From NCBI RefSeq assembly GCF_008000775.2, contig NZ_CP042905.2, positions 3,450,001-3,482,000 on the forward strand: 32,000 nucleotides of DNA, in the 5' to 3' direction. The DNA comes from Promethearchaeum syntrophicum (GTDB lineage Archaea; Asgardarchaeota; Lokiarchaeia; Sigyniarchaeales; Promethearchaeaceae). This document shows positions 1 through 25,158 of this stretch, one piece after another. A program made the translations under genes and the position numbers. Position 1 is the first letter of the stretch. Every line of letters starts with the position of its first letter. The notes under the pieces were generated by a model. It saw only the letters and a program-made list of their open reading frames with translations. It did not search any database and was not told the DNA's origin.

Positions 1-1051
1 ACATTACAACTTCACGACATACAGTGGCAATATCTGAACCAGAATATCCTTCAGAAATTTCCCCTAATTCTTTGAAATCGACCGTTTCATCCATCTCGAC
101 TTCTTTAGTGCAAAGTTCAAAGATTTTAGTTCGCCCTTCCACAGTAGGAAGACCACAATATATCTTTTTTTCAAACCTCCGAAGAACAGCATTATCAATA
201 TCCCATGGAAGATTGGTTGCACCCATTAAAGTCACCAATTTGTCACTAGAACTTTTAACTCCTTGCATTTCCTGTAGAAATTGCGTTTTAATTCTTCGTT
301 CTCCCCCACCTTCATGACCTCCTCCTCTTTTTCCTGCAAGACTGTCAACTTCATCCATAAAAATTAAAGAAGGAGCGTCTAAACGAGCTACTTTGAATAA
401 TGTTTTTAGTAATTTTTCTGATTCACCTAACCATTTTGAAACTAAACTAGCAGAATCGGCAGCAAAAAATTGTACTCCACATTCATTTGCAGCCGCTTTT
501 GCTATCAAAGTTTTCCCGCAACCGGGTGGACCAAATAATAGTATACCACGCCAAGGTTTTCGTGCACCTCTGAAAAGTTCGGGATGAGACATTGGTAGAA
601 CTACCGCCTCTCTAATTGCTTGTTTTGGGTTCTCCATTCCTGCAACGTCACCCCATGTGATAGTTGGACGTTCAGTTATAATGGTTCCTTCAATAGTTTT
701 TCTTAATTCCTTCTCATCATCAGACATTTCTGCATCTTCTTCAGATTCTCCTGATTCTTCACCAGTTTTATCTTTCCTATTACTTTTATTGGGAACCCGA
801 CCAGAAGGAACTTTGAGTTTCTTATTTTTAAGTTGAGTTAGCATATCTGCACGTTTAAAGTACTGAAGGGCTTTTTCTTGAGCCAGTTTTTTCAATTTGG
901 TGTTTTTACAGAATTTAGCAAATTCATTGAGTGTCTCGGTGGCATTTAAATATTTATCAGCCGCTTCATCAAATTGTTTTTGCTTATCAAGTTCAATTGC
1001 TTCATTAGCTAGTTTTATCGCAGCATTAAAGATTTTGTTATCAGAACTCAT
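1..1051 (-). CDS. vps4: Vps4/CdvC-type AAA+ ATPase (MIT domain + AAA core). Partial: the C-terminal part lies beyond the left window edge, so it is absent from the ORF track.
   Basis: Own translation of the minus strand from ATG 1051-1049 gives MSSDNKIFNAAIKLANEAIELDKQKQFDEAADKYLNATETLNEFAKF... (MIT-like helices), then an acidic/Ser-rich linker, then ITWGDVAGMENPKQAIREAVVLPMSHPELF. Motifs present: Walker A GPPGCGKT, pore loop VSKWLGESEK, Walker B SLIFMDEVDS, LRRFEKKIY. It is colinear with eukaryotic VPS4 as I remember it. Plus-strand ORFs 24..317 and 393..587 are antisense shadows. Confidence 0.9.
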   Translation of the reverse strand, partial: MSSDNKIFNAAIKLANEAIELDKQKQFDEAADKYLNATETLNEFAKFCKNTKLKKLAQEKALQYFKRADMLTQLKNKKLKVPSGRVPNKSNRKDKTGEESGESEEDAEMSDDEKELRKTIEGTIITERPTITWGDVAGMENPKQAIREAVVLPMSHPELFRGARKPWRGILLFGPPGCGKTLIAKAAANECGVQFFAADSASLVSKWLGESEKLLKTLFKVARLDAPSLIFMDEVDSLAGKRGGGHEGGGERRIKTQFLQEMQGVKSSSDKLVTLMGATNLPWDIDNAVLRRFEKKIYCGLPTVEGRTKIFELCTKEVEMDETVDFKELGEISEGYSGSDIATVCREVVM

Positions 1052-2825: not shown

Positions 2826-3155
2826 TCATAAACGTCGCGCCTTTTTAAGACGTGCTCTCCGGAGATCCCGTTCTTTTATCCATTTTTTTCCGCATTTAGA
2901 ACAATAAAGACCAAACAGAATTTGTTCTCCTTCGGAAAAAATCTTGGCACATTTCACACAAATACTCTTAAATTTATACCAATATACCAGTTTAACATCA
3001 ATTTGCATTTCTTTTTCTTTCTTTGGCCCACATTTAGAACAGTAAAGACCAGATAAAATTCTTTCGTTCTCACAAAAGGTCTCCCCACAACCTATGCAAA
3101 ATGATTTATTATATGTACTCCACTTAGGTTTCGCATTTTTTCTAAAAATTGTCAT
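2826..3155 (-). CDS. Double zinc-ribbon protein with a basic C-terminal tail
   Basis: Two internally repeated CxxC...CxxC units: CIGCGETFCENERILSGLYCSKCGPKK and CVKCAKIFSEGEQILFGLYCSKCGKKW. The tail is RDLRRARLKKARRL. Confidence 0.6.
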   Translation of the reverse strand: MTIFRKNAKPKWSTYNKSFCIGCGETFCENERILSGLYCSKCGPKKEKEMQIDVKLVYWYKFKSICVKCAKIFSEGEQILFGLYCSKCGKKWIKERDLRRARLKKARRL

Positions 3156-4749: not shown

Positions 4750-7293
4750 TCATATTGGAATTTTTAATTTTTCATCCTTAATTGGGGATTCTGTTATAAT
4801 TTCAGTATTAAAATATTTCTTTATCATCTCATGCAACGGGAAATCTAAAGGTTTTCCTTTGAATTCTTTGATTTTTTCTCCAAAATCAAACTGAATTTCA
4901 TCTTTAAGTTTTAAAATCCCTTTTTCTATCCATCTAGGATTATCTTTCATAAATAGAATTAACCAAAAAGGATTTCCATGAATTATATTTACATATCCTC
5001 CTTCAATTTCAATGGTTCTTAATCGAGAGCCAGTAATTTCTTTAATTAATGATAGAATTCCAATAAATGCTCCAGAAACTAATGCAGAGTCTGAATGTTT
5101 CATTTTATATGATATTTTTTCTGCGAGTGGAGCACCATTATCATGTAGAATCATCAAACCTAACAAGGATCTTTTTACTTTTTCTCTTGTAACAAAATAA
5201 CCTCCCACTATACTGCTAACTAAACCAATAAAAATAGGAAGTGTTATTAACCAAAAAATGGAATTTTTTACTTCAATTGCTTGATCTAGAGTCAAAATAC
5301 CAGTATAATATTCACTTATCACCTCAATAACAATATCATAACTACCTTCTTCAATATCTGAAGGTGTTTTCCAAGAAAATGATTCTTCTTGATTGATTCC
5401 TTCTAATATTTCATGATAAACCAAATCAACATTTGAACGTATTCCAGTATGAAAAACTCTAATTTGAATATCTACGGGTCTGAGTAAATAAGATTGATTT
5501 CCAATGTCTTTTAAATTTAATTCAAATTCAATGGTATTCCCGGGAGGTATTGTAGTTCTGCTCTTACTTAACTCCATTGTGACAATTCTTGGATTAATAA
5601 TAATCGGAACTTCAGAGTAAACTATTCCATAGTTTTCTTTTTCCGCTTGTATTGAAATTGAATAATTTCCGGGAAATATACTAAATTGACTTAAATCAAT
5701 AGAATGGGAGTAATTTCCTTTAGTATCCATATCCATTACACCAGAAAGATCCCCAAAATTATATGAGATTAATCCATCAGAAATTGGTAATTGAGAATGA
5801 AAATCTCTATAAAAACAAGAAAATGAAAAATTATCCAACGCATAACCATAGATTGGATCTGAAATTATTTCAGAAACCCTGTTTATGCTAATATTCCTTG
5901 AGTAATATCCAATTTCATTAGATCCATTGAAGAAAATCTCAACATTTAGGGAATTTGTATCAATAAGCGGATCTAAATGCCATTGAAAACTTTGATATGA
6001 AACATTGTAACTTGAATTTTGATAAACAAGTGTCTCATTATCCCATAGGAATAAATAGATGTCACCATTTCCTTTTGTAGAAACATTGACTGTAGTCGTT
6101 GTTCCAACTAGCAAAATATCTTTTAAATTAACAGAATCTATGTAATTTTCACTTATTAATAATATGTGTGTTGCTTCCGCTGTAAAGCTAATAACTTCTG
6201 GGGATATTGAAGAATATCCTACAATACTTGATTGATTATGAACTTCGATAAAAATGTAATCATCTTTAATTCCAGAAACATTAATTCTGTAATTTGAATA
6301 AGGGGAACTAAAATACCCAGAATTTATGGTCAAATTCCATTCAATTTCAATTAAATCTTGTTGAATTTGAGTATAGTATTGTATGGAACAATTTCTATAA
6401 AAAATACTTGCCAAAGAATAAAAAAAACTTATGGATTCATTTGAGTTAATAGTTAATATGGTGTTAGTTGAACTTATTTCATCAGTAATCCTTACAAACC
6501 CTTTTCCAATACCGGTGTTAAGAACTGGAATGCCATTTACATTCATTTCTACATCCTCAGGATTAATTATTTCAGAAGTTCTAACTTTCAAAGTTAAATC
6601 ATAGTTTGCAGGTTGCCAGCTTGTTGTAAACTCCCAAGTTTCTGTGTTATTATCTGAACTTTTTTCCCAAGAACTATCAGCCGGTAGAATTTTTTCAATC
6701 CAGAGAAAATAAGTCCCAGGAGTTAGAATTATATGTTCAGAAAATGTGATATTTATCCATACACCGCTATCACTTGCTCCTGAAATGAATAATGGAGTAA
6801 AAGCATAAATTAATTCACCACTATAAGAATTATTTCTAATTTCCATATGAGGATAAATTTCAGCCTTTGTATATAATGATATTGAAAATCCAATCAAATT
6901 TACAGTTTTACCAATAATAAAGGATTGAGCTTGTTGGTTTCGAGAATAGGTCAAAGGAGCATCTTCAATAATATCTAATGTTTCATTTATAACATTGAAA
7001 GCAATATCAGCACTAAACGAATCATATTCAATAGGTGTTTCAAAAGACAATTCTTCTGAATTCGGTTCAACATTGGAATAACTTCGATTTATCGTTTCGG
7101 ATGAGTTGAATTGAATTATTGATGATGGAAGGTCTTGTGATTTTGGAGTAAAAAAATTATTTTGAGAAAGGTTTTCTTCATCAAATTTGGACTGATTTTT
7201 AAAAAAAAATTTAGAATTTTCAAAATTTTTTGGATAAAGTAATGGTAACAATCCAATAATTATTATTAAGAAAGCAATTTTTTTTTTTTGGAT
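4750..7293 (-). CDS. Type-I membrane, glycoprotein-like receptor candidate: signal peptide, beta-rich ectodomain, 1 TM, cytoplasmic Roadblock/longin-like tail (paralogue 1)
   Basis: The canonical-start ORF is 4750..7251 (TTG, 833 aa). Alignment to paralogue 2 places the start at codon 7293-7291, which is ATC here, preceded by GAGGT at 7-nt spacing. TM helix IFWLITLPIFIGLVSSIVGGYFV lies at 5191-5259 and is followed by TREKVKRS. The 146-aa tail occupies 4753-5190. I counted about 23 N-x-S/T sequons by eye in the ectodomain. Confidence 0.8.
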   Translation of the reverse strand: MQKKKIAFLIIIIGLLPLLYPKNFENSKFFFKNQSKFDEENLSQNNFFTPKSQDLPSSIIQFNSSETINRSYSNVEPNSEELSFETPIEYDSFSADIAFNVINETLDIIEDAPLTYSRNQQAQSFIIGKTVNLIGFSISLYTKAEIYPHMEIRNNSYSGELIYAFTPLFISGASDSGVWINITFSEHIILTPGTYFLWIEKILPADSSWEKSSDNNTETWEFTTSWQPANYDLTLKVRTSEIINPEDVEMNVNGIPVLNTGIGKGFVRITDEISSTNTILTINSNESISFFYSLASIFYRNCSIQYYTQIQQDLIEIEWNLTINSGYFSSPYSNYRINVSGIKDDYIFIEVHNQSSIVGYSSISPEVISFTAEATHILLISENYIDSVNLKDILLVGTTTTVNVSTKGNGDIYLFLWDNETLVYQNSSYNVSYQSFQWHLDPLIDTNSLNVEIFFNGSNEIGYYSRNISINRVSEIISDPIYGYALDNFSFSCFYRDFHSQLPISDGLISYNFGDLSGVMDMDTKGNYSHSIDLSQFSIFPGNYSISIQAEKENYGIVYSEVPIIINPRIVTMELSKSRTTIPPGNTIEFELNLKDIGNQSYLLRPVDIQIRVFHTGIRSNVDLVYHEILEGINQEESFSWKTPSDIEEGSYDIVIEVISEYYTGILTLDQAIEVKNSIFWLITLPIFIGLVSSIVGGYFVTREKVKRSLLGLMILHDNGAPLAEKISYKMKHSDSALVSGAFIGILSLIKEITGSRLRTIEIEGGYVNIIHGNPFWLILFMKDNPRWIEKGILKLKDEIQFDFGEKIKEFKGKPLDFPLHEMIKKYFNTEIITESPIKDEKLKIPI

Positions 7294-7339
7294 GAAAATT
7301 ACCTCTATTGTATTATTTATTATAATAATGCAAAATAAG

Positions 7340-7360
7340 GTAAAAAAGTTGCTTTTTTGT
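7340..7360 (-). promoter_or_regulatory. Conserved intergenic 20/21-mer upstream of paralogue 1 (copy A)
   Basis: Plus strand reads gtaaaaaagttgcttttttgt, minus strand ACAAAAAAGCAACTTTTTTAC. It is almost identical to 10006-10025 and sits at the same distance (about 47-67 nt) from the aligned start codon. It contains the short inverted repeat AAAAAG-CAA-CTTTTT. Confidence 0.5.
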
Positions 7361-7366
7361 ATGTTT

Positions 7367-7377
7367 AAAAAAAAAAA
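7367..7377 (-). terminator. Oligo-T (T11 on minus strand) terminator candidate after paralogue 2
   Basis: An A11 run on the plus strand lies 37-47 nt downstream (in the minus sense) of the stop at 7414-7416. Confidence 0.4.
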
Positions 7378-7413
7378 TTCTGGATTATTTATTCATCAGT
7401 GGGAATTAAAAAT

Positions 7414-9957
7414 TCAAGAAGGATTCTCCATTGGTAATTCTTCTTCATTAACAGTTTCAGTTATTATTTGAGTGTTAAAATACGCCTTAATCCAATCTTC
7501 TATTGAGATTTCCAAAAGTTCCCCGTTAAAATTTTCGATTTTTTTTCCATATTTTAACTCTATTTCATCTTTAAGTTTTAAAATATCCTTTTCTATCCAT
7601 CTCGGATTATCCTTTAGAAAAATTACTAACCAAAATGATTTTCCATGTATTAAATTTACATAACCACCCTCAATTTCAATGGTTCTTAGTTGAGAGCCTG
7701 TTATTTCTTTTATTAATGATAATATCCCTGTAAATGCACAAGAAATTAAAGCAACATCTGATTTTCGCAGTTTAGGTGACATTTTTTCTGCTAATGGAGC
7801 ACCGTTATCATGTAGGATTATTAAACCTAATAACGATTTTTTTACTTTGTTTTTTTTTATATAATAACCAACAACAGAACTACTGACTAAACCAATAAAG
7901 ATAGGTATTAATATTATCCAAAAAGTGGAGGATTTGATATTAATTGCTTGATTTACGTAGAGAAAACCAGTGTAATATTCATTTATTACCTCAACAACGA
8001 CATCATAACTACCTTCTTCAAGATCTAAAGGTATGTCCCATAAAAAAGATTCTTTATTATTTATACCTCCTAATCTTTCATTATAAACTAAATTACTGCT
8101 TGAATTTGTTCCGGAATATAATATTTTGATTTGAAGATCTACGGGTCTAAGTAAATATTGTTGATTTCCAATGTCTTTTAGATTGATTTCAAAATCAAGG
8201 GTATTTCCGGGAGCTATTGTTGTCCTACTCTTACTTAACTCAATTGTTGCGACTCTAGGACTAATTATTATTGGAATTTCAGAGTAAGTTAATCCATAAT
8301 ATTCTTTTTCAGCTGTTAATGATATTGAATACTCTCCCGGTAAGATTCCATAATGATTTAAATCGAGAATATCAGAATAATTACCATGTATATCCATTTC
8401 CATTACACCTAAAAGATCCCCAAATTCATATGTGATAAATCCGTCAGGAATAAGTATTTGATTATAATGATCACAATATTGACATGAAAAAGAAAAATTA
8501 TCTAAAGTATAAACATGTAATGGGGCTGAAATTATTTCAGAAACCCTGAAAATACTAATATCCTCTGAATAATAACCAATTTGGTTAGTGCCATTGAAAA
8601 AAATATTAATAGTAAGGGAATTTAAATCTAAGGATGGATTTATATACCATTGAAAATTCTTATAAGAAACATTATAAATCGAATTCTGATATAAAAGGGA
8701 TTCATTATTCCAAATAAAAGCATAAATGTCACCAATGCTTTTAGTAGAGACATTTATTGTAAGATTGGTTCCATATTGAAGGTTATTACTGAGATTAACG
8801 TCATTAATATAATTTTGACTTTTAAGATTAATATGACTAGCTTCGGTCAAAAATCCGATAATTTCTGAAGAAATTAATGAGTAACCTATAACTTCTGTTT
8901 GATTATAAACTTGAATATCATAGTAATCATCTTTTATACCTGAGATATTAATTTTATAATCAAAGTAGGGATACTCAAGAAAACCAGAATCAATTATCAA
9001 ATTCCATTCAACCCATTCTTGTTGAAATTGAGATTCATGTTGAATCAGAGAATTTTTATAATAAAAATTTTCAGATGAGTAAAAAAAATTTATGTTTTCA
9101 TCTGAGCTTACGGTTAAATTAATGTTAGAAGAAATAATATCTCCTAAAATCTTTACTGATCCTTGTCCTGGATATGTATCAATAACAGTAACTTCATTTA
9201 TTTTCATATTCACATCTTCTGGATTTATTAATTCTGAAGTAAAAATTTTCAAAGTCAAATCATAATTTGCAGTTTGCCAGAAAAAGCCTGTAAATTCCCA
9301 TGTCTCTGTGTCATTTTCTGAGAAAAGACTTTTTTCCCAACAACTATATTGGGACCCAACTTCTTGCATCCAGAGAAAATATATCCCAGGAGTTAAAATA
9401 ATCTGGTCAGAAAATGTAATATTTATCCATCCACCTGAGTTAATGAAAGGAGTAAATGAAATAATTGAATCCCCACTATAAGACTGATTTCTTATTTCCA
9501 TATTCACATAAATTTCATTTTTTTCAAAAATCTGTATTGAAAATCCAAGTAAATATACATGATCAATAATAATAAATGATTGTGCTTGCTGAGATCGAGA
9601 TTCTCCTCCCAAATCAGAACTTTCAACTATTGTAGTATTTATAGTTCCATTCATAACGTGAAAATCAATATTAGATTCATAATTATCATATGATTCGGGG
9701 GTTTCCATTAATAAATCAGATGAAATTAGCTCGGTATTAGATTGATTTCGATTTATTCTTTCGGATGAATTGAATTGGATTTTTGATGATGGAAGGTCTT
9801 GTGTTTTAGGTACAACAAGATTATCTTGAGAAAGGTTTCTCTCATTAAAATAAATCTGGTTGTGAGAAATATGCGTCGTATTTTCAATTTTTAAAGGAAT
9901 AAGAGATGATAATGATCCAAATATCAAGATTAATATCACGATTTTGTTTTTTTTCAT
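7414..9957 (-). CDS. Type-I membrane, glycoprotein-like receptor candidate with cytoplasmic Roadblock/longin-like tail (paralogue 2)
   Basis: The ORF opens at 10059, but Met35 (ATG 9957) begins a classical signal peptide, MKKNKIVILILIFGSLSSLIPL. TM helix TFWIILIPIFIGLVSSSVVGYYI lies at about 7858-7926 and is followed by KKNKVKKS. The 147-aa tail occupies 7417-7857. It is colinear with paralogue 1 throughout. Confidence 0.85.
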   Translation of the reverse strand: MKKNKIVILILIFGSLSSLIPLKIENTTHISHNQIYFNERNLSQDNLVVPKTQDLPSSKIQFNSSERINRNQSNTELISSDLLMETPESYDNYESNIDFHVMNGTINTTIVESSDLGGESRSQQAQSFIIIDHVYLLGFSIQIFEKNEIYVNMEIRNQSYSGDSIISFTPFINSGGWINITFSDQIILTPGIYFLWMQEVGSQYSCWEKSLFSENDTETWEFTGFFWQTANYDLTLKIFTSELINPEDVNMKINEVTVIDTYPGQGSVKILGDIISSNINLTVSSDENINFFYSSENFYYKNSLIQHESQFQQEWVEWNLIIDSGFLEYPYFDYKINISGIKDDYYDIQVYNQTEVIGYSLISSEIIGFLTEASHINLKSQNYINDVNLSNNLQYGTNLTINVSTKSIGDIYAFIWNNESLLYQNSIYNVSYKNFQWYINPSLDLNSLTINIFFNGTNQIGYYSEDISIFRVSEIISAPLHVYTLDNFSFSCQYCDHYNQILIPDGFITYEFGDLLGVMEMDIHGNYSDILDLNHYGILPGEYSISLTAEKEYYGLTYSEIPIIISPRVATIELSKSRTTIAPGNTLDFEINLKDIGNQQYLLRPVDLQIKILYSGTNSSSNLVYNERLGGINNKESFLWDIPLDLEEGSYDVVVEVINEYYTGFLYVNQAINIKSSTFWIILIPIFIGLVSSSVVGYYIKKNKVKKSLLGLIILHDNGAPLAEKMSPKLRKSDVALISCAFTGILSLIKEITGSQLRTIEIEGGYVNLIHGKSFWLVIFLKDNPRWIEKDILKLKDEIELKYGKKIENFNGELLEISIEDWIKAYFNTQIITETVNEEELPMENPS

Positions 9958-10005
9958 GTTGAAAATGCACATTTTGGTTTGTTTATTAGTGTAGTATAAA
10001 ACATC

Positions 10006-10025
10006 GTAAAAAAGTTGCTTTTTGT
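10006..10025 (-). promoter_or_regulatory. Conserved intergenic 20-mer upstream of paralogue 2 (copy B)
   Basis: Plus strand reads gtaaaaaagttgctttttgt. It differs from 7340-7360 by one T in the run and lies 49-68 nt upstream of ATG 9957. Confidence 0.5.
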
Positions 10026-10035
10026 TAGCATTTTC

Positions 10036-10043
10036 AAAAAAAA
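10036..10043 (-). terminator. Oligo-T (T8 on minus strand) terminator candidate after the SDR gene
   Basis: An A8 run on the plus strand lies about 20 nt downstream (in the minus sense) of the stop at 10063-10065. Confidence 0.4.
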
Positions 10044-10062
10044 GTAGTTTTATCATCAATTA

Positions 10063-11407: not shown

Positions 11408-12064
11408 TTAAGTTCGACGTTGTTGTTTCAATTTTTTAATTTCCTTTTCCAAGTCATCAATTTGTGCTTCTGCATTCACACCTGAAGGAACACTTGGAAG
11501 TGAAATTCCAGATTCTACACTCAATTCTGAATCAACTTCTGCGAGAGCTAAATTCACTTCATCATCAGTAACTCCAGTTGAAGATGCATCATCCGTAATT
11601 TCGAGTTGTTCTGAAGTTTCCCCGAACATAGACTCCATTGAACCGAACCCTAAATCCATTTCAGATAAGAGCTGCGCAATTTCAGGCATTTTTACTTGTT
11701 CTTGTAACCCTTGTAGAGTTCCTACAATATCTTCTGCAACTTTAGAAAATTGCCCCATAGCTTTTGCCTGTTCTAATCGATATTGAACTCCTTCCATCCT
11801 CACGCGAAAGTTTTCGGTAGAATGAGCCCATTTTCTATATTGTAATGAATTTTTCATATGAAGTTTTGAACCGGCAATATCCCCATTTTTTCGGGCAGTA
11901 ATTGCTTTTTTCTTTGCTGTGCGTTCTTGAATCTCCATTTTTCCAATTTGACGGGCCAGACGTTTGTTAAAAACTTTGATTTTTATCAAAGGAGATGTTT
12001 CATTATTTTTCTGATACCCTCCACTTAACCACGTCGCAAAATTTTTCAAAGAGCCGATTATCAT
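11408..12064 (-). CDS. ESCRT-III / Snf7-family protein (CHMP1-3 / Vps2-24-46-like) with a MIM1-like C-terminus, paralogue 1
   Basis: The ORF opens at TTG 12097. ATG 12064 (MIIGSLKNFATWLSG) aligns with the start of the paralogue at 14060. A basic helical hairpin (FNKRLARQIGKMEIQERTAKKKAITARKNGDIAGSKLHMKNSLQYRKW) is followed by MPEIAQLLSEMDLGFGSMESMF, an acidic region and the terminal IDDLEKEIKKLKQQ. This layout is colinear with CHMP1-type ESCRT-III as remembered. Confidence 0.85.
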   Translation of the reverse strand: MIIGSLKNFATWLSGGYQKNNETSPLIKIKVFNKRLARQIGKMEIQERTAKKKAITARKNGDIAGSKLHMKNSLQYRKWAHSTENFRVRMEGVQYRLEQAKAMGQFSKVAEDIVGTLQGLQEQVKMPEIAQLLSEMDLGFGSMESMFGETSEQLEITDDASSTGVTDDEVNLALAEVDSELSVESGISLPSVPSGVNAEAQIDDLEKEIKKLKQQRRT

Positions 12065-12145
12065 TCCCTTCCTTTTTTTCTTAATTACCAGTGTCAATAA
12101 AAAAAAATATTATTAACCTAATATAATGTTGTGATTGAAAATATA

Positions 12146-13948
12146 TTATTTAATGCTTTCCAGCTCATTCAAAAAATATTCATATTGCTTCATACCTAGT
12201 TCCCAAAATTCAGGTTTTGTTATATCAAACCCAATAATCTCTCCAATTTCTTTAGGAGATAAGGAACTTCCTGCTGACATAATCTTCTTGAATTTGATGA
12301 TAAATTCCGCTCCTTCCTTTTTATAGATCTGATATAACGCATACACAAACAATTGTGCGTATACATAAGGATAATTATAAAATCGAAAATTAGGTAGATA
12401 ATAGTGAGGTGTCTTTGCCCATTGCCATCGCATTTCATCGAACCAACTTACACTATCCCCAAAAATTCTATTTCTAGCATTACACCATAATTTTGCAATT
12501 GTTTCTCCATCTAAATGCTCTCCATTTTCAATAGAATCATAAAGGGTTTTTTCGAAAAATACACGGGCTGACACAAAGAAGACCCCCATCCCTGCTTCAT
12601 CTAATATATGAGCGAGAATTGAACGTTTTTCTGAATTCGATAGAGAAGGGTCATTTAGAAAGAGGTCAGTCATAAGCAATTCACCAAAAATTGAAGCGGT
12701 CTCCGCCACCACCATTGAAATATCAGTATTCAAGTAAGAGTTATTTTTCGTGCAGTAATAAGCATGAATTGCGTGTCCTAACTCATGAGCGAGGGTATAT
12801 TCACTATTCAAATCTTCACTATATGATGTAAGAATGAATGCAGAACGACCTTTAAACCATGTTGAGCAAAATGCCCCATTACTCTTCCCGTATCTTGGAC
12901 TTGCATCGATGTGAGTTTTATTATACATATCCTCTACAATCGTCTTAAATTCTTCATCAACATTTCCATAACCTTTGAGTATTTGATCTTTCGCAGATTC
13001 CCAATCAATTTTTTTATGAGTTAAGTCAGAAAGAGGTGCCATTATATCTTCACACCCTAATTTTGGTAAATTCATTAGAGAGGCTTTTTGATCCAAATAT
13101 CTTCGATATAATCCGACATTGCTCTCAATAGTTTTCATTAAATTATCTACAGTTGATTGATCAAGGTCATTGGCAATTAAACTCTGATGCATTGTATTAC
13201 TAAATTTCCTTCTCTTTGATGTATTTAACCAGTCACCACAAACATTTCGAAGAGCTGATGAGAAAATATCGTTTTCTTTCCCTATTAATCCATAAATCCC
13301 TTTAAAACAAGAAGTTCGTGTTTTTCTGTCGGGATGGGTTAAAAATGCTACTGCTTTACCGTAAGGGAGGGTTTTCAATTCTCCTTTTACTTCAAAATTT
13401 ATCATTCTAGTGTTTAACCATGATCCATGAATTTGACTCCAAGCTTCCACTCCAAACTGATCTTTTTCAAGAATTAATTGCTCTACGCTTTCAGATAGCT
13501 GATGTGGATATAGACGTAATATAATTTCAAGATGATGCTTATAATTAGCAAGAATAGGATCTGTAATTAGATTTTGATGTTCAAAAACATATTTACCGAT
13601 TTCGAGTGAAAGAAAGGCAATTTTCTTATTTAAATCTGTTAAAAAGCTTGTAATCTTAGTATGTAATTCTTGATTTTCAGGCAATGTCATATTAGCAGCA
13701 AAAGAAAGCTCAGAAAATTGCCTAAGTTCAGAAAACTCAACAAGAAAACTTTCTTCTTCTTGGAATAGATTCAGCAAATCAGTAGCAGTGAAATCTGGAA
13801 CGTTTATTTTGCCTTTGTATTTTAATACTAAATTATCTGTCATTTCTATAAGATTTTTTCGCGCAACTGCAATTTTTGGATGATTTGGATCGGGAAAAAG
13901 TTTGGTCAAATCCCATGCAATTTCATTTTCTAAATTTTCTGATTTCAT
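12146..13948 (-). CDS. pepF: M3B-family oligoendopeptidase F
   Basis: 600-aa ORF with AGGTGA 6 nt upstream of the ATG. The zinc site HELGHAIH is followed by AETASIFGE (the third ligand Glu region). Length and motif spacing are typical of PepF. Confidence 0.9.
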   Translation of the reverse strand: MKSENLENEIAWDLTKLFPDPNHPKIAVARKNLIEMTDNLVLKYKGKINVPDFTATDLLNLFQEEESFLVEFSELRQFSELSFAANMTLPENQELHTKITSFLTDLNKKIAFLSLEIGKYVFEHQNLITDPILANYKHHLEIILRLYPHQLSESVEQLILEKDQFGVEAWSQIHGSWLNTRMINFEVKGELKTLPYGKAVAFLTHPDRKTRTSCFKGIYGLIGKENDIFSSALRNVCGDWLNTSKRRKFSNTMHQSLIANDLDQSTVDNLMKTIESNVGLYRRYLDQKASLMNLPKLGCEDIMAPLSDLTHKKIDWESAKDQILKGYGNVDEEFKTIVEDMYNKTHIDASPRYGKSNGAFCSTWFKGRSAFILTSYSEDLNSEYTLAHELGHAIHAYYCTKNNSYLNTDISMVVAETASIFGELLMTDLFLNDPSLSNSEKRSILAHILDEAGMGVFFVSARVFFEKTLYDSIENGEHLDGETIAKLWCNARNRIFGDSVSWFDEMRWQWAKTPHYYLPNFRFYNYPYVYAQLFVYALYQIYKKEGAEFIIKFKKIMSAGSSLSPKEIGEIIGFDITKPEFWELGMKQYEYFLNELESIK

Positions 13949-14059
13949 TGATATTCACCTAACTACCTAGCTTATTTTATCTTACTATAAGAATTTTTTA
14001 GAAGGTATTTACTCCTAATAAATAAGTAAAATTTTATAAAAAAAAAAAATTGGTTCAAT

Positions 14060-14713
14060 ATGGGTTCAATAAAACGTTTTGCAGGTTGGTTAAGCGGTGA
14101 CCGAAGAAAAGGTGGATCAGATCCGGTGCGATCAACGATAACTAGCCTTAAGATATTCAATAAAAGACTCCAGAGACAAATACGGAAGATGGAGTCACAA
14201 GGAAAGCTAGCCAAGAAAAAAGCAATTGAGAGAAGGAAAGCAGGAGATATCCCCGGGTCCAGACTTCATATGAAATCATGTTTGCAATTTACCAAATGGT
14301 CTCATTCAACCGAGAATTTCAGAGTTCGGCTTGATGGAGTTCAATTTAAGCTCGAACAAGCGAAAGCGATGAATGATTTTTCGGGTGTTGCACAAGAAAT
14401 TGTTGGTGTTTTGGGTGAACTTCAAAACACAGTAAAAGCACCAGAATTAGGAAAAATTCTTTCTCAATTAGATTTGGGATTTGGAAATATGGAGTCAATG
14501 TTTTCAGAAACCTCTGAACAACTCGAGATTTCAGATGATGCATCCGCTTCTGGTGTGTCGGACGAAGAGGTGGATATGGCTCTTGCTGAAGTTGACGCAG
14601 AATTATCTTTAGATACGCGAGAAGCTTTACCTTCAGTTCCCGGCTTAGCTGACACTGGTGAAATTTCCGATTTAGAAAAAGAAATAGCCCGATTAAAATC
14701 ACAAAGAGATTAA
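14060..14713 (+). CDS. ESCRT-III / Snf7-family protein with a MIM1-like C-terminus, paralogue 2
   Basis: 217 aa, colinear with 11408..12064 and by eye roughly two thirds identical (GSIKRFAGWLSG, FNKRLQRQIRKMESQ, HSTENFRVRLDGVQFKLEQAKAM, LDLGFGNMESMFSETSEQLEISDDAS). The terminus is ISDLEKEIARLKSQRD. Confidence 0.85.
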   Translation: MGSIKRFAGWLSGDRRKGGSDPVRSTITSLKIFNKRLQRQIRKMESQGKLAKKKAIERRKAGDIPGSRLHMKSCLQFTKWSHSTENFRVRLDGVQFKLEQAKAMNDFSGVAQEIVGVLGELQNTVKAPELGKILSQLDLGFGNMESMFSETSEQLEISDDASASGVSDEEVDMALAEVDAELSLDTREALPSVPGLADTGEISDLEKEIARLKSQRD

Positions 14714-18654: not shown

Positions 18655-19515
18655 CTAATCTTTAAGCAATACATTTAACTCAGCTTGGGAGAATACGGGA
18701 CCATCAATACACACAAATTTACTTCCTATATTGCACCTTCCACATTTTCCAATACCGCATTTCATCCTCATTTCAAGTGAGAGAAAAACTTGTTCATCAA
18801 CAAATCCTAATTCGTGGAGAACTGGAGATGTGTACTTAATCATGACTGGTGGACCACACACAAATGCCATAGCATTTTTCGGACTAGGAGCAACTTCTTT
18901 TGTAATTGTTGGAACAAACCCTACCAACTTTTTCCAATCTGGATGTTCGCGATCTATGGTTAAATGGAGATTAATATCATCTCTTTTTCCCCACTCTTCC
19001 AAATCTTCTTTATAGCAAAATTCTCCTGGATTGCGGCATCCATAGATTATAGTAATATCTCCAAATTTTGATCGATTATTTCCATGTAAAAGATATACAA
19101 TAAAAGAACGTAGAGTGGTAAAGGCAAACCCGCCACCAATTATTACTATATTTTTTCCTTCTGCTTCTTTGAGTGGCCAACCATTTCCAAAAGGTCCGCG
19201 AATACCAAGAGATTTCCCTTTTTTTGAATCATGAAGACGATTTGTTACTTTTCCAGTTTTCTTAATTGTAAAAAGTAAGTAATCTTCTTCTGTTGGTGAA
19301 CTTGCAATACCTATTGGAGATTCACCAATACCAAATTCTGTAATCTCTGCAAATTGTCCAGGTTTAAAATTTTCAAAGAATTTTTCTTTATCCGCAATTT
19401 CATTAAAAGTTAATTTAAAAGTTTTTAAATCGTTTACTTCGTTTTCTGAATCTATATCTTCTATTGTAACCAATGAAGGAATATAGGGATTATCAAGTTC
19501 GTGTTTATGATTCAT
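18655..19515 (-). CDS. FAD/NAD(P)H-binding oxidoreductase with a C-terminal [2Fe-2S] site (FlxA / sulfhydrogenase gamma HydG / AsrB-like)
   Basis: Ferredoxin-reductase-type layout: GESPIGIASSP (FAD), NIVIIGGGFAFTTLRS (NAD(P)-binding) and C-terminal MKCGIGKCGRCNIGSKFVCIDGP (PyrK-type Cx4Cx2C...C). Confidence 0.8.
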   Translation of the reverse strand: MNHKHELDNPYIPSLVTIEDIDSENEVNDLKTFKLTFNEIADKEKFFENFKPGQFAEITEFGIGESPIGIASSPTEEDYLLFTIKKTGKVTNRLHDSKKGKSLGIRGPFGNGWPLKEAEGKNIVIIGGGFAFTTLRSFIVYLLHGNNRSKFGDITIIYGCRNPGEFCYKEDLEEWGKRDDINLHLTIDREHPDWKKLVGFVPTITKEVAPSPKNAMAFVCGPPVMIKYTSPVLHELGFVDEQVFLSLEMRMKCGIGKCGRCNIGSKFVCIDGPVFSQAELNVLLKD

Positions 19516-19530
19516 GATTTTCTAACCACA

Positions 19531-20637
19531 TTATGCTTTTTCTGCTGTTTCAACTACCGTTTTAAGTGTTTCTCTGATGTCACGATTAGTAGGACACACT
19601 TTAATACAACGCCCGCAACCAACGCAACCCAGAATTTTATAATTTTTAAGATAATAATTAAATTTATGATAAATTCGCTGTCTTGTTCTTTCTCTACCTG
19701 AATTTCGAGGATTATGCCCAGATGCTTCAAGTGTAAAAATTGACGTTTGACAATTATCCCATATTCTGACCCGTGTTCCTTCATTTTTATCATATTTATC
19801 CTGCACATCAAAACAATGGCATGTAGGACAAATGTAACTGCAAGCGCCGCAAGAAAGACATTTACGACTTACGACTGACCATATATCACTCTCAAATAAA
19901 CCATCGAGATCCTTTTCAATGTTATCCAAATTAATATTAAATTGAATCTTATCACGCGATGATGATGCCCATTCTTCTTTTCTTTTAAGATCGGCTTGTT
20001 CTACATCGGGATACTCTTTTACATATTTATTAAAGATGCTTCCTTTTTCCGAGGTAATTTTAAAGATATATTTATCCCCCAGATCGAATAAAATCGCATC
20101 TAATCCTTCAGAAGAGAATGGGTCACCACCTACTGAAGTGCAAAAGCACGTACTCATAGGTTCGTTGCAGGCTAATCCAATTAATAGAGTTTTATTCCTT
20201 TTGTTGAAATAGTAAGGATCACTATATTTTCCTGATGAGAAAAAGGTATCGAGGATTTTATAACTTCGCGCATCACAACTTCTGATACCAAAAATTACTT
20301 GATCATCAATAATTTCTTCTTTCTCTTTTATCTTTATTTTATTATCTTCTTTTTCAAATGAATAAAGCACTTCGTTTTGTGGAAAGAGAAATTTTTTGGG
20401 AGAGATTCTTAAATTTTGATATTCGGGGAATTGATATTCTTCATTATCTAAGTCAAGATAACCAAATTCTACTTCATTTTCAGCCTTTTTTGGAACTATC
20501 ATCTTAAAATCTTTGTATATCCCCTTGATTAAGGAATCTAATTTATCTTTTGGAATAATCTTCTCAATTGTTTGCTGTTGATCTACCTGATTTTTTTGAT
20601 CATTTTGGTTTTTTTGCGTTTTTGCTTTTTTTACCAT
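19531..20637 (-). CDS. Iron-sulfur protein, FlxB / sulfhydrogenase beta HydB / AsrA-like
   Basis: 368 aa with AAGGGGGA upstream of the ATG. Cluster motifs are CLSCGACSYICPTCHCFD and CVGCGRCIKVCPTNRDI. Length and motif placement resemble HydB/AsrA. Confidence 0.75.
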   Translation of the reverse strand: MVKKAKTQKNQNDQKNQVDQQQTIEKIIPKDKLDSLIKGIYKDFKMIVPKKAENEVEFGYLDLDNEEYQFPEYQNLRISPKKFLFPQNEVLYSFEKEDNKIKIKEKEEIIDDQVIFGIRSCDARSYKILDTFFSSGKYSDPYYFNKRNKTLLIGLACNEPMSTCFCTSVGGDPFSSEGLDAILFDLGDKYIFKITSEKGSIFNKYVKEYPDVEQADLKRKEEWASSSRDKIQFNINLDNIEKDLDGLFESDIWSVVSRKCLSCGACSYICPTCHCFDVQDKYDKNEGTRVRIWDNCQTSIFTLEASGHNPRNSGRERTRQRIYHKFNYYLKNYKILGCVGCGRCIKVCPTNRDIRETLKTVVETAEKA

Positions 20638-20654
20638 TTATATTCCCCCTTCTA

Positions 20655-21629
20655 TTATTCACTGATTATAAATTCTTGAGGATCATCCTTTTTATAGGAT
20701 CCCAATATAGAGGGATCGCCCAATTCAATTTTATCAGCATCCCATCTATCTTTTGCCATTTTTCTTAATTTTTTATATAATAAATGAATATCTATCCCCT
20801 CAGGGCAAGCTCGTGTACATGCCTCACAACCTGTACATCTTCCCGCCAAATGAATAGCCCGTGTCATATGAAAAAGCATTTTTTCTGAAAGATCGTTAGT
20901 TTTATCAAACCATTGTGGTTGATTTGAATCAATAAAACATGTTTTGCAATAACATAATGGGCAAGCATTCCTACACGCCATACATAAAGTGCATTTTTCT
21001 AACTCTTTTTTAAAGTACTCCCATCGTTCTTTTGGGGTTTTTTTCTCAAATTCGATTACATCAAGATATTCATCGAAATCTTCTTCTTTGATATTTTTAA
21101 ATTCGCTAGGAGCTTCAACCAAGTAATCATATTCTACAGGATTTTTATCTTTACAATAAACACATGAATCTGATAGAATATCTTGAAGTTTAATATTTTT
21201 TTCAAAATCAATACCTTTAAAGGTATAATCATTTTCATTTTTCTTAAACTCAGTAAATTCTTTACCACCAAATAATTTCGAGAGTTTATTCGAATCAATT
21301 ATGCCATGACCGCATGGAACCCCAATGATGACAATATCTTCGCGATTTATTTGTTTTTCATTTAATAATACAATTAAAGAACGAATCTCACAAGTTTTTA
21401 AAATTATCCCTATTTTCTTTCCATGAGGTTCATCATGTAGAAATTTGACTAAATTTAGATTACAATAGTCATTCCAAATTAACCTATCGATATCCTCTTC
21501 TTTCTCAATATAAAAAGGCATTGATTTTAACGGAAGAGTTCCTTCTTCAAACCCTAACACAAATTCAACTTTTTTTTCCGATATTAATGATCTTACGATT
21601 TCACTAAGTGATTTTCTAATTTCTTCCAT
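20655..21629 (-). CDS. Iron-sulfur protein, FlxC-like (2 x CX2CX2CX3CP)
   Basis: CTLCMACRNACPLCYCKTC and CTGCEACTRACPEGIDI. The N-terminal part contains IVIIGVPCGHG. The ORF opens at 21695, overlapping mvhD by 59 nt. I prefer ATG 21629, which lies 7 nt after the mvhD stop. Confidence 0.6.
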   Translation of the reverse strand: MEEIRKSLSEIVRSLISEKKVEFVLGFEEGTLPLKSMPFYIEKEEDIDRLIWNDYCNLNLVKFLHDEPHGKKIGIILKTCEIRSLIVLLNEKQINREDIVIIGVPCGHGIIDSNKLSKLFGGKEFTEFKKNENDYTFKGIDFEKNIKLQDILSDSCVYCKDKNPVEYDYLVEAPSEFKNIKEEDFDEYLDVIEFEKKTPKERWEYFKKELEKCTLCMACRNACPLCYCKTCFIDSNQPQWFDKTNDLSEKMLFHMTRAIHLAGRCTGCEACTRACPEGIDIHLLYKKLRKMAKDRWDADKIELGDPSILGSYKKDDPQEFIISE

Positions 21630-21636
21630 ATTTTTA

Positions 21637-22125
21637 TCACTGATCTTCTTTAAATATTTTATTTGGTCCCAACTTTCGTGTTTTTTCAGTAACATCCCTT
21701 ATTACTTGCGCGAACGCTTCTCCTTCAGCTGCAGAAACCCACGAGAAATTTACTCGCCCCTTTTCAATCCCTATAAACTCTAATAAATCATTCAACACTG
21801 AGAATTTTCTTCGAGCATAATAATTTCCTGAAATATAATGACAATCTCCCGGATGACAGCCGGAAACAAGTACAGCATCAACCCCCACTTGTAAACTTTT
21901 TAGGACATGTAATGGGTTAATTCTTCCAGAGCATGGAACTCTAACGACTCGTACATTTGGGGGGTATTGAATTCGAGATACGCCTGCCAGATCTGCACCT
22001 GCATATGAACACCAATTGCAAAGAAACGCTATTATTTTGGGTTCCCAATTTTCATCCGTAACCTCTTGAGTTTCATCAGAAGTGTGCATAACTTGGATTT
22101 CTTCAATTTTATCTGTATCTACCAT
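21637..22125 (-). CDS. mvhD: MvhD/FlxD-type [2Fe-2S] electron-transfer subunit
   Basis: PKIIAFLCNWCSYAGADLAGVSRIQYPPNVRVVRVPCSGRINPLHVLKSLQVGVDAVLVSGCHPGDCHY is the hallmark MvhD/FlpD core. The ORF opens at 22152. ATG 22125 has AGGTGA 7 nt upstream. Confidence 0.85.
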   Translation of the reverse strand: MVDTDKIEEIQVMHTSDETQEVTDENWEPKIIAFLCNWCSYAGADLAGVSRIQYPPNVRVVRVPCSGRINPLHVLKSLQVGVDAVLVSGCHPGDCHYISGNYYARRKFSVLNDLLEFIGIEKGRVNFSWVSAAEGEAFAQVIRDVTEKTRKLGPNKIFKEDQ

Positions 22126-22138
22126 TGTAAATTCACCT

Positions 22139-25100
22139 TTATTTAAACTCATTAATAACTAAATATAATTCCTCATCTGTAAATCCGAGTAAATCGATAG
22201 CCGAACCCCTGCAACTCGAAACACAAGCACCACACCCTTTACATAATCCAGAATTAATTTCAACAACCATTTTTTCTTCATCCATTTTGATTGCACTATA
22301 GGCACAAGTCTCTATACATAACCCACAACCGCTGCATTTGGAAATATCAACATGGGCAACTATTCCTTCAGATTCAATTTCATCTTTGCTTAGATAGGTT
22401 GAAGCTCGAGATACTACCGCATTAGCTTGCATGATAGATTCATCAATCGATCGAGGAGAATGAGCAAGACCACATACAAAGACTCCGGCAGTTGCAAAAT
22501 CAACAGGTCTCAATTTAACATGAGCTTCTAAGAAAAATTTATCATCATTTAATGGAACTTTTAACATTGGAGCTAAAATTTCGTTAGATTCATATGGAGG
22601 ATGAATTCCTACACTCAACACTAACAGATCCAGATCAATATCTATCTTTCCAATGTTTGGGGAATCGAGATGAATAACTAGATTCTTCCCTTTTTTTTCT
22701 AATTCAGGAGGTAAATCTTGATCAAATCTAATAAACATAACTCCTTTACTTCTTGCTTCCCGATAATATTTCTCTTTAAGACCGTATGTTCTAATATCCC
22801 GAAATAGAACAATAATTTCTTTCTCCGGATAAAGATCTTTTAGCTTTATAGAGTTTTTAACGGCTTCTGCACAACAAACTCTGCTACAATAGGGATTTTC
22901 ATCATTTCTGGAGCCGATACATTGAATCATTACAATTTTATTGACTTTTTCATCGAGTTCATTCTCGAAAAGCATTTTTTCGAAATCTATTTGAGTAACA
23001 ACTCTTGGATCTTTGGTATACAAATATTCTGTTGGTTGGTATTGTTCACCACCAGTGGCAACTACAATGATTCCATGTTCAAGGGTATTTTCTTCACTTT
23101 CTTTATTTTCCATCGATTTTAATGTAGTTTCAAAATTTCCTACAAAACCTTCGATTGTATCAATTTCTGTGTCCAAAAAGATCTTAAGGTTCTCATTATT
23201 CTTCGCATTTTTAACGATATTAGATAAATATTCTTGTACATTATTACCTTCGATTGTAGCATATATATTTTTGGCATGTCCGCCCAATTCTGCGGTTTTT
23301 TCAACCAAATATGTCATAAAACCTTGTTCAGCAAAGCCTAAAGCTGCAGTTAATCCAGAAATTCCTCCACCAATAACTAGAACATTATGATTCATATCTA
23401 AAATGGTTCTTTGCAGAGGTTCTATTTTATTTGCTTTACTCACGGCCATTCGAACTAAATCTTTTGATTTTGCGGTTGCAGCAACAGGCTCATGCATATG
23501 AACCCAACTGCATTGATCTCGAATATTTGCCATTTCAAATAGATAAGGGTTTAATCCCGCTTCTCTTATCGTTTCTTGGAATAGTGGTTCATGGGTTCTC
23601 GGTGTGCATGATGCAACTATAACTCGGTTTAAATTATTCTCTTTTATGGATTCAACAATTTTGGTTTGCGTGTCTGCTGAGCAAGTGTAAAGGTTTCTCT
23701 CTGCATATTCTACATTCTCCAAAGTTTCCGCATATTTCACTACGTCTGGAACGTCTACATAACCGCCTATATTAACACCACAATGGCAAACAAAAACTCC
23801 GATTCGTGGAGGTTGTCCTTCGACATTGATCTCTGGAGGGTATTCTTTCTTAGTTACCAAAGAATTTCGTACTGAATGCAATAAAATATTTGCATGTGCT
23901 GCACTTGCGCTAGCTTGAATAACACTTTCAGGAATATCTTTTGGAGCTGCAAAGGCACCACATACAAAAATTCCTGGTTTTGAGGTTTTACTCGGTGTAA
24001 AAGTGTCGGTTTGGCAAAAATTGTATTCATTTAATTCAAAACCAAAAATCTTGCTTAATTTAATAGCGTCATCTGGAGGATTTAACCCTACGCTTAACAC
24101 AACCATATTATATTCTTCAGTAATCAAAGATCCGTTTTCAGATTCATATGATAAAATCAGGTTTTTATTATCCGGATTTTCTTCTATGGATGAAATCCGG
24201 CTCCGGATATATTTTATCCCATATTCATCTTGAGCGCGTATAATATATTTATCAAAATCTTTTCCATATGCCCTAATATCCATCGTAAAAATGGTGGGAT
24301 TTACTTGATGTTGATGTTCTTTGGCAATTACAGCCTCTTTGGCGGTATACATGCAACAAACTGAAGAACAATAAGGTTTAGCGTGATGGATGTCCCTTGA
24401 GCCAATACATTGAAGAAACGCTACTTTTTCGGGAATATCTCCATCAGAGGGTCGTAAGACCATTCCGGTATACGGTCCACTTGCACTTAAAATTCTTTCA
24501 AACTCAATACTCGATACAACATTTGGATATTTTCCATAACCATAAACTTGTAAAGGTGCAGGATCAAATTCATCAAAACCCGGAGCTAGAATAATAGCTC
24601 CTACATTAATAGTTATTTCTTCATCTTGTTGGAAATATTCAACTGCATGAGCCTTACAAACGGCTTCGCATATTCCACAACCGATACATTTATCTCTATT
24701 AATGGAAAAGACAAGAGGAACAGATTGAGGGTATTTAACAAATGCTGCACTATTAATAACCATATTTTCATTATAGATATCAATACCCTCTACAGGACAT
24801 TGTTGCCCACAAATACCACACCCTGTACATTTCTCACTATTTATGAATAATGCTTTTTTCAATATGTTTACGTTGAAATTTCCCGCTTCTCCATCAAGTT
24901 TAACTATATTCGCGTTGATTAAAAGTTCGATATTTGGATGTCTTCCCGCTTCTACGAGTTTAGGGGAAAGAATGCACATTGAACAATCATTTGTTGGAAA
25001 AGTTTTATCCAGCTGTGACATAACTCCTCCAATACCTGTAGTTTTTTCAGATACATATACTTTATAGCCTGAATCAGCTAAATCCAGAGCTGATTGAATT

Positions 25101-25147
25101 CCAGCAATACCGCCACCAATGACTAATACAGCACCAATCTTTTCCAT
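22139..25147 (-). CDS. hdrA: Fused double-module HdrA (heterodisulfide reductase subunit A-like flavoprotein), 1002 aa
   Basis: The N-half has VIGGGIAGIQSA, FPTNDCSMCILSPK, an inserted ferredoxin (CTGCGICGQQCP, CIGCGICEAVC) and QCIGSRD...YCSSVCC. A linker occupies about aa 420-447 (nt 23807-23890). The C-half has IGVFVCHCGVNIGG, ASCTPRTHEPLF, VIGGGISGLTAA, QCIGSRN..YCSRVCC and a C-terminal ferredoxin (CSGCGLCIETC, CKGCGACVSSC). Confidence 0.9.
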   Translation of the reverse strand: MEKIGAVLVIGGGIAGIQSALDLADSGYKVYVSEKTTGIGGVMSQLDKTFPTNDCSMCILSPKLVEAGRHPNIELLINANIVKLDGEAGNFNVNILKKALFINSEKCTGCGICGQQCPVEGIDIYNENMVINSAAFVKYPQSVPLVFSINRDKCIGCGICEAVCKAHAVEYFQQDEEITINVGAIILAPGFDEFDPAPLQVYGYGKYPNVVSSIEFERILSASGPYTGMVLRPSDGDIPEKVAFLQCIGSRDIHHAKPYCSSVCCMYTAKEAVIAKEHQHQVNPTIFTMDIRAYGKDFDKYIIRAQDEYGIKYIRSRISSIEENPDNKNLILSYESENGSLITEEYNMVVLSVGLNPPDDAIKLSKIFGFELNEYNFCQTDTFTPSKTSKPGIFVCGAFAAPKDIPESVIQASASAAHANILLHSVRNSLVTKKEYPPEINVEGQPPRIGVFVCHCGVNIGGYVDVPDVVKYAETLENVEYAERNLYTCSADTQTKIVESIKENNLNRVIVASCTPRTHEPLFQETIREAGLNPYLFEMANIRDQCSWVHMHEPVAATAKSKDLVRMAVSKANKIEPLQRTILDMNHNVLVIGGGISGLTAALGFAEQGFMTYLVEKTAELGGHAKNIYATIEGNNVQEYLSNIVKNAKNNENLKIFLDTEIDTIEGFVGNFETTLKSMENKESEENTLEHGIIVVATGGEQYQPTEYLYTKDPRVVTQIDFEKMLFENELDEKVNKIVMIQCIGSRNDENPYCSRVCCAEAVKNSIKLKDLYPEKEIIVLFRDIRTYGLKEKYYREARSKGVMFIRFDQDLPPELEKKGKNLVIHLDSPNIGKIDIDLDLLVLSVGIHPPYESNEILAPMLKVPLNDDKFFLEAHVKLRPVDFATAGVFVCGLAHSPRSIDESIMQANAVVSRASTYLSKDEIESEGIVAHVDISKCSGCGLCIETCAYSAIKMDEEKMVVEINSGLCKGCGACVSSCRGSAIDLLGFTDEELYLVINEFK

Positions 25148-25158
25148 ACATTCTCACT

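Follow-up and report, generated by a model that had tools for sequence, protein, structure and literature searches.

Two adjacent genes for predicted type-I membrane proteins

In the present study, a stretch of 32,000 nucleotides from Promethearchaeum syntrophicum MK-D1, the first Asgard archaeon brought into culture, was analysed (contig NZ_CP042905.2, positions 3,450,001 to 3,482,000 of the forward strand; hereafter the window, whose own numbering is used throughout). The minus-strand open reading frames (ORFs) at 4750-10059 encode two paralogues of 847 amino acids (aa), DSAG12_03708 (copy A) and DSAG12_03706 (copy B). A preliminary description, made from the sequence without database searches, had presented them as adjacent, diverged paralogues of one architecture, and this proved correct: two minus-strand ORFs were found, BLASTP aligned 831 aa of A and B with 59% identity (E = 0), and both proteins run in the same order through a signal peptide, an ectodomain, one hydrophobic helix, a K/R-rich flank and a tail of 147 aa in A and 146 aa in B. 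Copy A is identical to the NCBI hypothetical protein DSAG12_03708 (P0001; 100% identity, 100% coverage). The features of the pair, including the transmembrane (TM) helices and the tail domains discussed below, are as follows.

7414..9957, minus strand: copy A gene (DSAG12_03708), from the ORF listing; ATG start (MKKNK...), 847 aa plus stop
9892..9957, minus strand: copy A predicted signal peptide, aa 1-22, MKKNKIVILILIFGSLSSLIPL; basic n-region and hydrophobic 19-mer, Kyte-Doolittle mean 2.35 (heuristic)
7924..9891, minus strand: copy A predicted ectodomain, aa 23-678 (656 aa), beta-rich; 21 N-x-S/T sequons, z = 3.7
7858..7923, minus strand: copy A predicted TM helix, aa 679-700, FWIILIPIFIGLVSSSVVGYYI; hydrophobic, K+R 1 before and 5 after
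7474..7842, minus strand: copy A predicted longin-type domain, aa 706-828; AF2 pLDDT 86.9, Foldseek Sec22b TMq 0.65, 7F8F E 4.8e-5
7417..7473, minus strand: copy A acidic C-terminal extension, aa 829-847; pLDDT 65, 36% A-B identity, low confidence
4750..7293, minus strand: copy B gene (DSAG12_03706, P0005); 847 codons plus stop if read through the signal peptide
5257..7227, minus strand: copy B predicted ectodomain, aa 23-679 (657 aa); 23 sequons, z = 4.4
5191..5256, minus strand: copy B predicted TM helix, aa 680-701, FWLITLPIFIGLVSSIVGGYFV; K+R 1 before and 4 after
4807..5175, minus strand: copy B predicted longin-type domain, aa 707-829; family hidden Markov model (HMM) E 1.8e-48, core 77% identical to A

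The start of copy B is irregular. No ATG, GTG or TTG codon precedes its signal peptide; copy B has the codons ATC CAA AAA AAA AAA ATT (IQKKKI) in place of the M-K-K-N-K of copy A and the orthologues, and a run of 12 A is present at this start (7228-7300, minus strand). The NCBI start of copy B is the TTG at 7251, giving a protein of 833 aa and cutting through the middle of the signal peptide. This irregularity may reflect a mutated start codon, non-canonical initiation or a homopolymer error.

Close relatives of the pair were found in Promethearchaeum metagenome-assembled genomes (MAGs) only, at three loci in a related-locus search with the alignment A2, and a related contig carries one copy at the same site as the MK-D1 pair. 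By position, the single gene of these relatives is orthologous to copy B, with 69-72% identity, compared with only 58-67% for copy A. Because the orthologues are nearer to B than to A, copy A is probably a lineage-specific duplicate. In three of three Promethearchaeum MAG contigs (L003, L004 and L005), the orthologue stands right at the contig start. Breaks in the assembly at a tandem paralogue would be expected to have this effect, and MK-D1 may thus not be alone in having the duplication. Another tandem pair of type-I proteins, independent of the first and belonging to a different subfamily, was observed on a further contig (L009:1715-4096 and L009:4189-6498; 793 and 769 aa), and the tail domain again forms the C-terminus of both proteins (HMM E 1.8e-36 and 1.3e-22).

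The membrane anatomy agrees with the earlier account. First, the signal peptides quoted in the preliminary description are present in both copies and are supported heuristically. Second, the single TM helix is followed by a positive stop-transfer flank, KKNKVKKS in A and TREKVKRS in B, and the K+R ratio between the 15 residues that follow the helix and the 15 that precede it is 5:1 for A and 4:1 for B. Third, the ectodomains are sequon-rich, as had been claimed: the observed numbers are about twice the 10.7 +/- 2.8 expected from composition-preserving shuffles, and 0 of 5000 shuffles reach the 23 sequons of copy B. The tails contain no sequon in either copy. In addition, the tail domain forms the C-terminus of two other proteins, P0047 and P0069, which match Pfam MFS_1 and have 11-12 hydrophobic segments. 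Since the C-termini of MFS transporters are cytoplasmic, these carriers place the domain in the cytoplasm independently. The K/R bias, the excess of sequons in the ectodomain only and the MFS carriers together indicate that the tail is most likely inside the cell, and neither the heuristics nor the carriers point to the opposite orientation. A cleavable N-terminal signal, a single TM helix and a cytoplasmic C-terminus are the marks of a type-I protein (N-out, C-in), and by these heuristics both copies bear them.

The ectodomain is less clearly assigned, and no confident family was found for it in Pfam and PDB searches of the family. The membrane-proximal module had been described as CARDB-like; CARDB (PF07705) gave no match at E<=10 in either window protein, and we have dropped this label. 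Only sub-threshold matches to Ig-like families were obtained, namely Kre9_KNH in copy B (aa 625-665, E 0.18), MG2 at the membrane-proximal module in 4 of 21 family members (best 2.6e-6, 28.2 bits against a cut-off of 32.8) and the PKD domain of KIAA0319L (E 1.2e-3). The N-terminal module gave sub-threshold matches to DUF4082 and PHR within the family, and the S-layer protein 4UID matched weakly (E 0.03). At the limit of the evidence, these results suggest that the ectodomain consists of Ig-like beta-sandwich modules. A protein of 1320 aa from a Methanomassiliicoccales MAG (P0051), non-Asgard and apparently a soluble coiled-coil protein, contains two copies of the tail domain, each behind a CARDB-like module (CARDB E 4.7e-5).

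The juxtamembrane tail domain and its family

The tail had been described as the most conserved part of the proteins, and this was confirmed both between the paralogues, where the tail core is 77% identical and the thirds of the ectodomain 55-63%, and against distant family members, where identity is 33-48% in the tail and 23-33% in the ectodomain. It is therefore strongly predicted that the tail is under stronger constraint than the ectodomain. Five orthologues from other Promethearchaeum genomes (P0003, P0006, P0007, P0009 and P0011) carry an extra basic amphipathic C-terminal extension, e.g. ...FAKINKLKKE, which both MK-D1 copies lack. A MIT-interacting motif, looked for by eye in such extensions, was rejected, as the spacing of hydrophobic residues is unlike MIM1 and the window copies have no such extension.

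Single-sequence searches gave little information on the fold. The sole Pfam match of tail B was Robl_LC7 (PF03259; E 0.037, 14.2 bits), which is below the gathering score of 23 bits, and tail A had no relevant Pfam match, so that neither tail reaches the Roadblock/LC7 gathering score. The Pfam longin families (cut-offs 26.2 bits for Longin and 26.1 for Fuz_longin_1) gave no match in the window proteins, and the best longin-family score among those shown was 22.8 bits, in P0060, against the cut-off of 26.1. No NCBIfam match was obtained for the window proteins or the family members tested, and none of them attained a Pfam cut-off. Profile searches were more informative. A profile of ten close tails found the Odinarchaeota Roadblock protein 7F8F as its first PDB match (E 1.1e-3), and the profile of a 59-sequence alignment of the tail domain (A3) matched 7F8F at E 4.8e-5 and Roadblock 9JUE at E 3.1e-4 among PDB sequences, followed by dynein roadblock (DYNLRB), BET5, MON1 (E 0.17) and Trs23. 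When the 59 members were scanned one by one, Fuz_longin_1 matched 11 (best 2.3e-5), Robl_LC7 9 (E<=1; best 1e-4) and Intu_longin_1 5, and other Pfam families recurred in at most two members.

The predicted structure resolved the topology further. AF2 with A3 modelled the copy A tail (model m1da7b3c66cca) at pLDDT 86.9 and pTM 0.78 with the order ββαβββαα, and the same order was obtained from 10 close sequences at pLDDT 52. The DSSP elements, in tail numbering, are E4-11, E16-21, H30-46, E53-57, E60-66, E70-76, H83-103 and H114-122. In a Foldseek search against the PDB, the top 50 matches were all Roadblock or longin-fold proteins, with probabilities of 0.99-1.00 and E values from 2.9e-4. Among the longin proteins, Sec22b aligned over 123-131 columns (TMq 0.62-0.65), followed by VAMP7 (0.52-0.59) and the TRAPP core (0.56); the Roadblock matches (dynein roadblock, LAMTORs and the MK-D1 protein Roadblock2, 9JQ8) covered the core only, over 74-103 columns at E ~3e-4. 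The ββ-α-βββ sandwich common to Roadblock and longin proteins is thus present in the predicted model by both structure and profile. The longin rule is ββαβββαα, with a C-terminal helix in place of the Roadblock N-terminal helix (PMC10933270). The AF2 model follows this order, including the extra C-terminal helix, and lacks the N-terminal helix of the Roadblock order (α-β-β-α-β-β-β): β1 begins at tail residue 4, 8-9 residues past the TM helix, with no helix between. The absence of a helix before β1 argues for a longin-type and not a Roadblock-type topology, and the short spacing implies that the domain has to sit immediately beneath the bilayer. The model and the profiles support a Roadblock/longin-superfamily fold with longin topology, which bears out and sharpens the Roadblock/longin-like tail of the preliminary description, the similarity being significant both in profile (7F8F) and in structure (the Foldseek top 50). 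Taken jointly, the architecture and the fold are highly probable.

Comparison with known systems places the tail more exactly. The longin domains of Sec22b, VAMP7, Ykt6, TRAPPC1/C4 (Bet5/Trs23) and the adaptor sigma/mu subunits have the same ββαβββαα order without an N-terminal helix and are the best whole-domain structural matches to the tail, with a sequence identity of only 10-19%. In longin SNAREs, however, an N-terminal longin domain is followed by the SNARE motif and a C-terminal TM helix, whereas in the proteins described herein the TM helix comes first and the domain 8-9 residues later, and no SNARE or coiled-coil family was matched in the window proteins. The Roadblock/LC7 proteins (MglB, LAMTOR2-5, DYNLRB, 7F8F, 7F8M and 9JQ8) give the closest sequence signal and share the ββαββ core, but the tail has two C-terminal helices instead of their N-terminal helix. 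The Roadblock dimers of Ragulator are also held at a membrane, but through the lipidated LAMTOR1, whereas here the link would be a covalent TM helix with an ectodomain. The subunits of the tri-longin guanine nucleotide exchange factors (GEFs), MON1/FUZ/HPS1 and CCZ1/INTU/HPS4, contribute with their first longin domains the most frequent Pfam matches in the family; they contain three longin domains, in contrast to the single, membrane-integral longin domain of the tail proteins, and act as heterodimers, which would fit tandem paralogues.

The window proteins are not isolated examples. The ten-tail profile found 89 proteins at E<=1e-3 among 1.8 billion representatives, and an A3-based search, in which 1030 candidates were scored, added few. 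A TM-like segment lies within 45 aa upstream of the domain in 66 of the 85 occurrences with enough upstream sequence, and the domain is usually C-terminal. About 30 carriers of ~850 aa share the architecture of the window proteins; other type-I carriers have different ectodomains (P0053-P0056 and P0068), and TSP3-repeat proteins (P0046), 5-8-TM proteins, soluble forms and a PAS-HisKA protein (P0088) were also observed. Members with a named source come from Promethearchaeota, Baldrarchaeia and one Methanomassiliicoccales MAG. As judged from these searches, the domain is one member of an unnamed family whose hallmark is a juxtamembrane C-terminal site on diverse membrane proteins. In six metagenomic proteins of MFS type (P0047, P0050, P0069, P0072, P0082 and P0089), with 9-12 hydrophobic segments, the domain directly follows the last TM segment, and two of these proteins are named "MFS family permease" by JGI. 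In a soluble protein of 220 aa from a Baldrarchaeia MAG (P0043/P0102; L006:8001-8663), the tail domain follows an N-terminal region of 95 aa whose best Pfam matches, both sub-threshold, are MIT (E 0.01) and NRBF2_MIT (E 0.022); if this MIT assignment is correct, the domain family would have a connection to modules that bind ESCRT-III.

The fold superfamily and its Asgard expansions are known, and small GTPases and Roadblock/longin proteins number in the dozens in Asgard archaea. Liu et al. listed 130 Roadblock/LC7-superfamily asCOGs and described Asgard proteins in which a longin-like domain is joined to two-component signalling domains, and in MK-D1 a Roadblock or longin domain is fused to 26 of the 74 small-GTPase sequences (PMC10933270). 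These fusions come from the same organism group and superfamily, and the PAS-HisKA carrier P0088 parallels the two-component type. A NPRL2-like identity, suggested by the fusions of Liu et al., was rejected, as neither NPRL2 nor NPR2 appeared in the Pfam, PDB-sequence or Foldseek lists. In the literature examined, no longin or Roadblock domain behind a TM helix and fused to an ectodomain or a transporter was described, and an earlier listing in supplementary tables is possible; a search of the searchable literature for the locus tag found no paper. The juxtamembrane fusion to ectodomains and transporters is considered a new architectural form within a known fold superfamily.

Proposed function and alternative explanations

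Herein, we propose that the pair encodes type-I glycoproteins with a longin-type recruiting tail, which we favour as the best overall explanation and hold to be reasonably probable. First, the signal peptide would export an N-glycosylated, Ig-like ectodomain of ~656 aa, and a longin-type domain of ~120 aa would follow the single TM helix after 8-9 residues on the cytoplasmic side. Second, the tail would dimerise through its central helix and an edge strand, the usual mode of longin and Roadblock domains, in an A-A or an A-B combination, and the tethered dimer would form a platform lying flat against the inner face of the membrane. Roadblock/longin dimers serve as GTPase platforms in MglB, Ragulator, TRAPP and Mon1-Ccz1. 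By analogy with such systems, the chance that the tail forms a dimeric recruiting platform appears about even. Third, a cytosolic partner would be drawn to the platform, the most plausible candidates being the ~74 small GTPases of MK-D1, and cell-surface events or position would thereby be coupled to cytoplasmic machinery. A GTPase is the leading candidate because of the analogy with MglB, Ragulator, TRAPP and Mon1-Ccz1 and because of the 26 fused sequences among the 74; this identification of the partner, drawn from analogy, is tentative and somewhat doubtful.

Several observations weigh against this explanation in whole or in part. No Pfam gathering cut-off is reached by the window proteins, and hhalign gave probabilities of 61% for DYNLRB1, 7% for Sec22b and 1.4% for LAMTOR2, with approximate comparison sequences that make these values leads only. 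The topology was derived from heuristics (hydrophobic segments, K/R bias and sequons). Expression of copy B may be low or absent altogether, as this copy has no canonical start codon. Longin and Roadblock domains also have GTPase-independent roles, as in SNARE regulation, the adaptor sigma/mu subunits and the dynein light chains. Finally, no small-GTPase gene is adjacent to a gene for the domain in the window or at the fetched loci. At two loci (L010 and L011/L012), Arf/Rag-like and Ras/Roc-like genes are present at a distance of 4-7 kb; given 74 GTPase sequences in 4.3 Mb, or about one per ~58 kb, such distances fit chance, and co-location was dropped as evidence. The neighbourhood check for GTPase co-occurrence, proposed in the preliminary description, thus revealed no linkage beyond chance at the loci examined; Tran et al. 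reported that Asgard operons do not pair GTPases with regulators.

The main rival explanation is that the tail is a generic PAS/GAF/longin-like module for dimerisation or regulation of its carrier, free of any GTPase, which would control or cluster that carrier through transporter gating, receptor oligomerisation or small-ligand sensing. The functionally unrelated carriers (MFS, TSP3-repeat, 5-8-TM and PAS-HisKA proteins), the lack of a linked GTPase gene at the loci examined and the two-component fusions of Liu et al. are consistent with such a module. However, no ligand pocket or ligand-binding family was matched, and the best matches of the tail are members of GTPase platforms and trafficking complexes rather than PAS or GAF domains, so that we regard this explanation as rather unlikely. 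More improbable is the idea that the pair are structural proteins of a surface coat or of syntrophic contacts, with the tail as an inner anchor, perhaps to the cytoskeleton. The large, sequon-rich, Ig-like ectodomain, which diverges faster than the tail, would suit such a role, as would the weak S-layer match to 4UID and the confinement of the close family to the genus, but an anchor would explain neither the occurrence of the same tail on transporters and soluble signalling proteins nor its place as the most conserved part of the protein.

If the recruiting-tail explanation holds and the partner is a GTPase, a further proposal can be made. In archaea, the family might connect the membrane directly with small-GTPase signalling: a longin dimer, covalently fixed under the membrane by a receptor or a transporter, would act as an anchor, GEF or GTPase-activating protein for Arf-, Rag- or Rab-like GTPases. 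The inputs would be cell-surface contacts in the type-I members and substrate flux in the MFS members, with a readout akin to that of Ragulator/SLC38A9 or to the reading of membrane identity by TRAPP and Mon1-Ccz1. We consider this proposal distinctly unlikely as it stands; if true, it would make the family a candidate precursor of the membrane-tethered GTPase platforms of eukaryotes.

Whatever the partner, a longin-type domain on surface glycoproteins and transporters provides a concrete set of candidate platforms fixed at the membrane, and the tails of ~140 residues are small and soluble enough for expression and for screening against the ~74 MK-D1 GTPases. Binding would connect a eukaryote-type GTPase switch directly to the surface of a prokaryotic cell. 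If no GTPase is bound, the family would still represent a new and widespread cytoplasmic module of archaeal membrane proteins.

The ESCRT genes and other neighbours

The preliminary description had emphasised the position of the pair between vps4 and ESCRT-III genes. This position is literally true: a Vps4 gene lies at 1..1051 (minus strand; 93% identical to a gene with MIT, AAA and Vps4_C matches), and Snf7-family (ESCRT-III) genes lie at 11408..12097 (minus strand) and 14060..14713 (plus strand). Four relatives within Promethearchaeum keep this gene order and have ESCRT-II genes further on, but the linkage is kept only within the genus. Eight unrelated ORFs on both strands intervene, six on the Vps4 side and two on the ESCRT-III side, and no ESCRT neighbours were found at the distant homologues L002, L010, L013, L009 and L011, which adjoin a tRNA synthetase, helicases or nothing of note. 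Because of the intervening ORFs and the lack of ESCRT genes at the distant loci, we do not take the proximity as functional evidence. Thus, a tie of the pair to ESCRT, with the tail as a cargo or adaptor handle, is very improbable, as the flanking genes, their kept order and the MIT-like region of the soluble Baldrarchaeia member, which would all suit it, are set against those same intervening ORFs and distant loci and against a MIT match of 16 bits where the cut-off is 30.

Other features of the window were also observed. The two Snf7 paralogues (~62% identical), which are divergently oriented, flank a gene for an M3 oligoendopeptidase at 11408-14713, an arrangement kept in one related contig (L001). 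At 18655-30466 (minus strand), a same-strand cluster resembles heterodisulfide-reductase/Mvh-type electron bifurcation, as read from ORF translations only, with a HdrA-like protein of 1002 aa, MvhD-like and HdrB/C-like proteins and Fe-S proteins. On the Vps4 side of the pair, a protein of 109 aa (2826-3155, minus strand) consists of two near-repeats of a CxxC...CxxC zinc-ribbon (DUF7564, E 5e-8) and is found at the same position in four of four related contigs.

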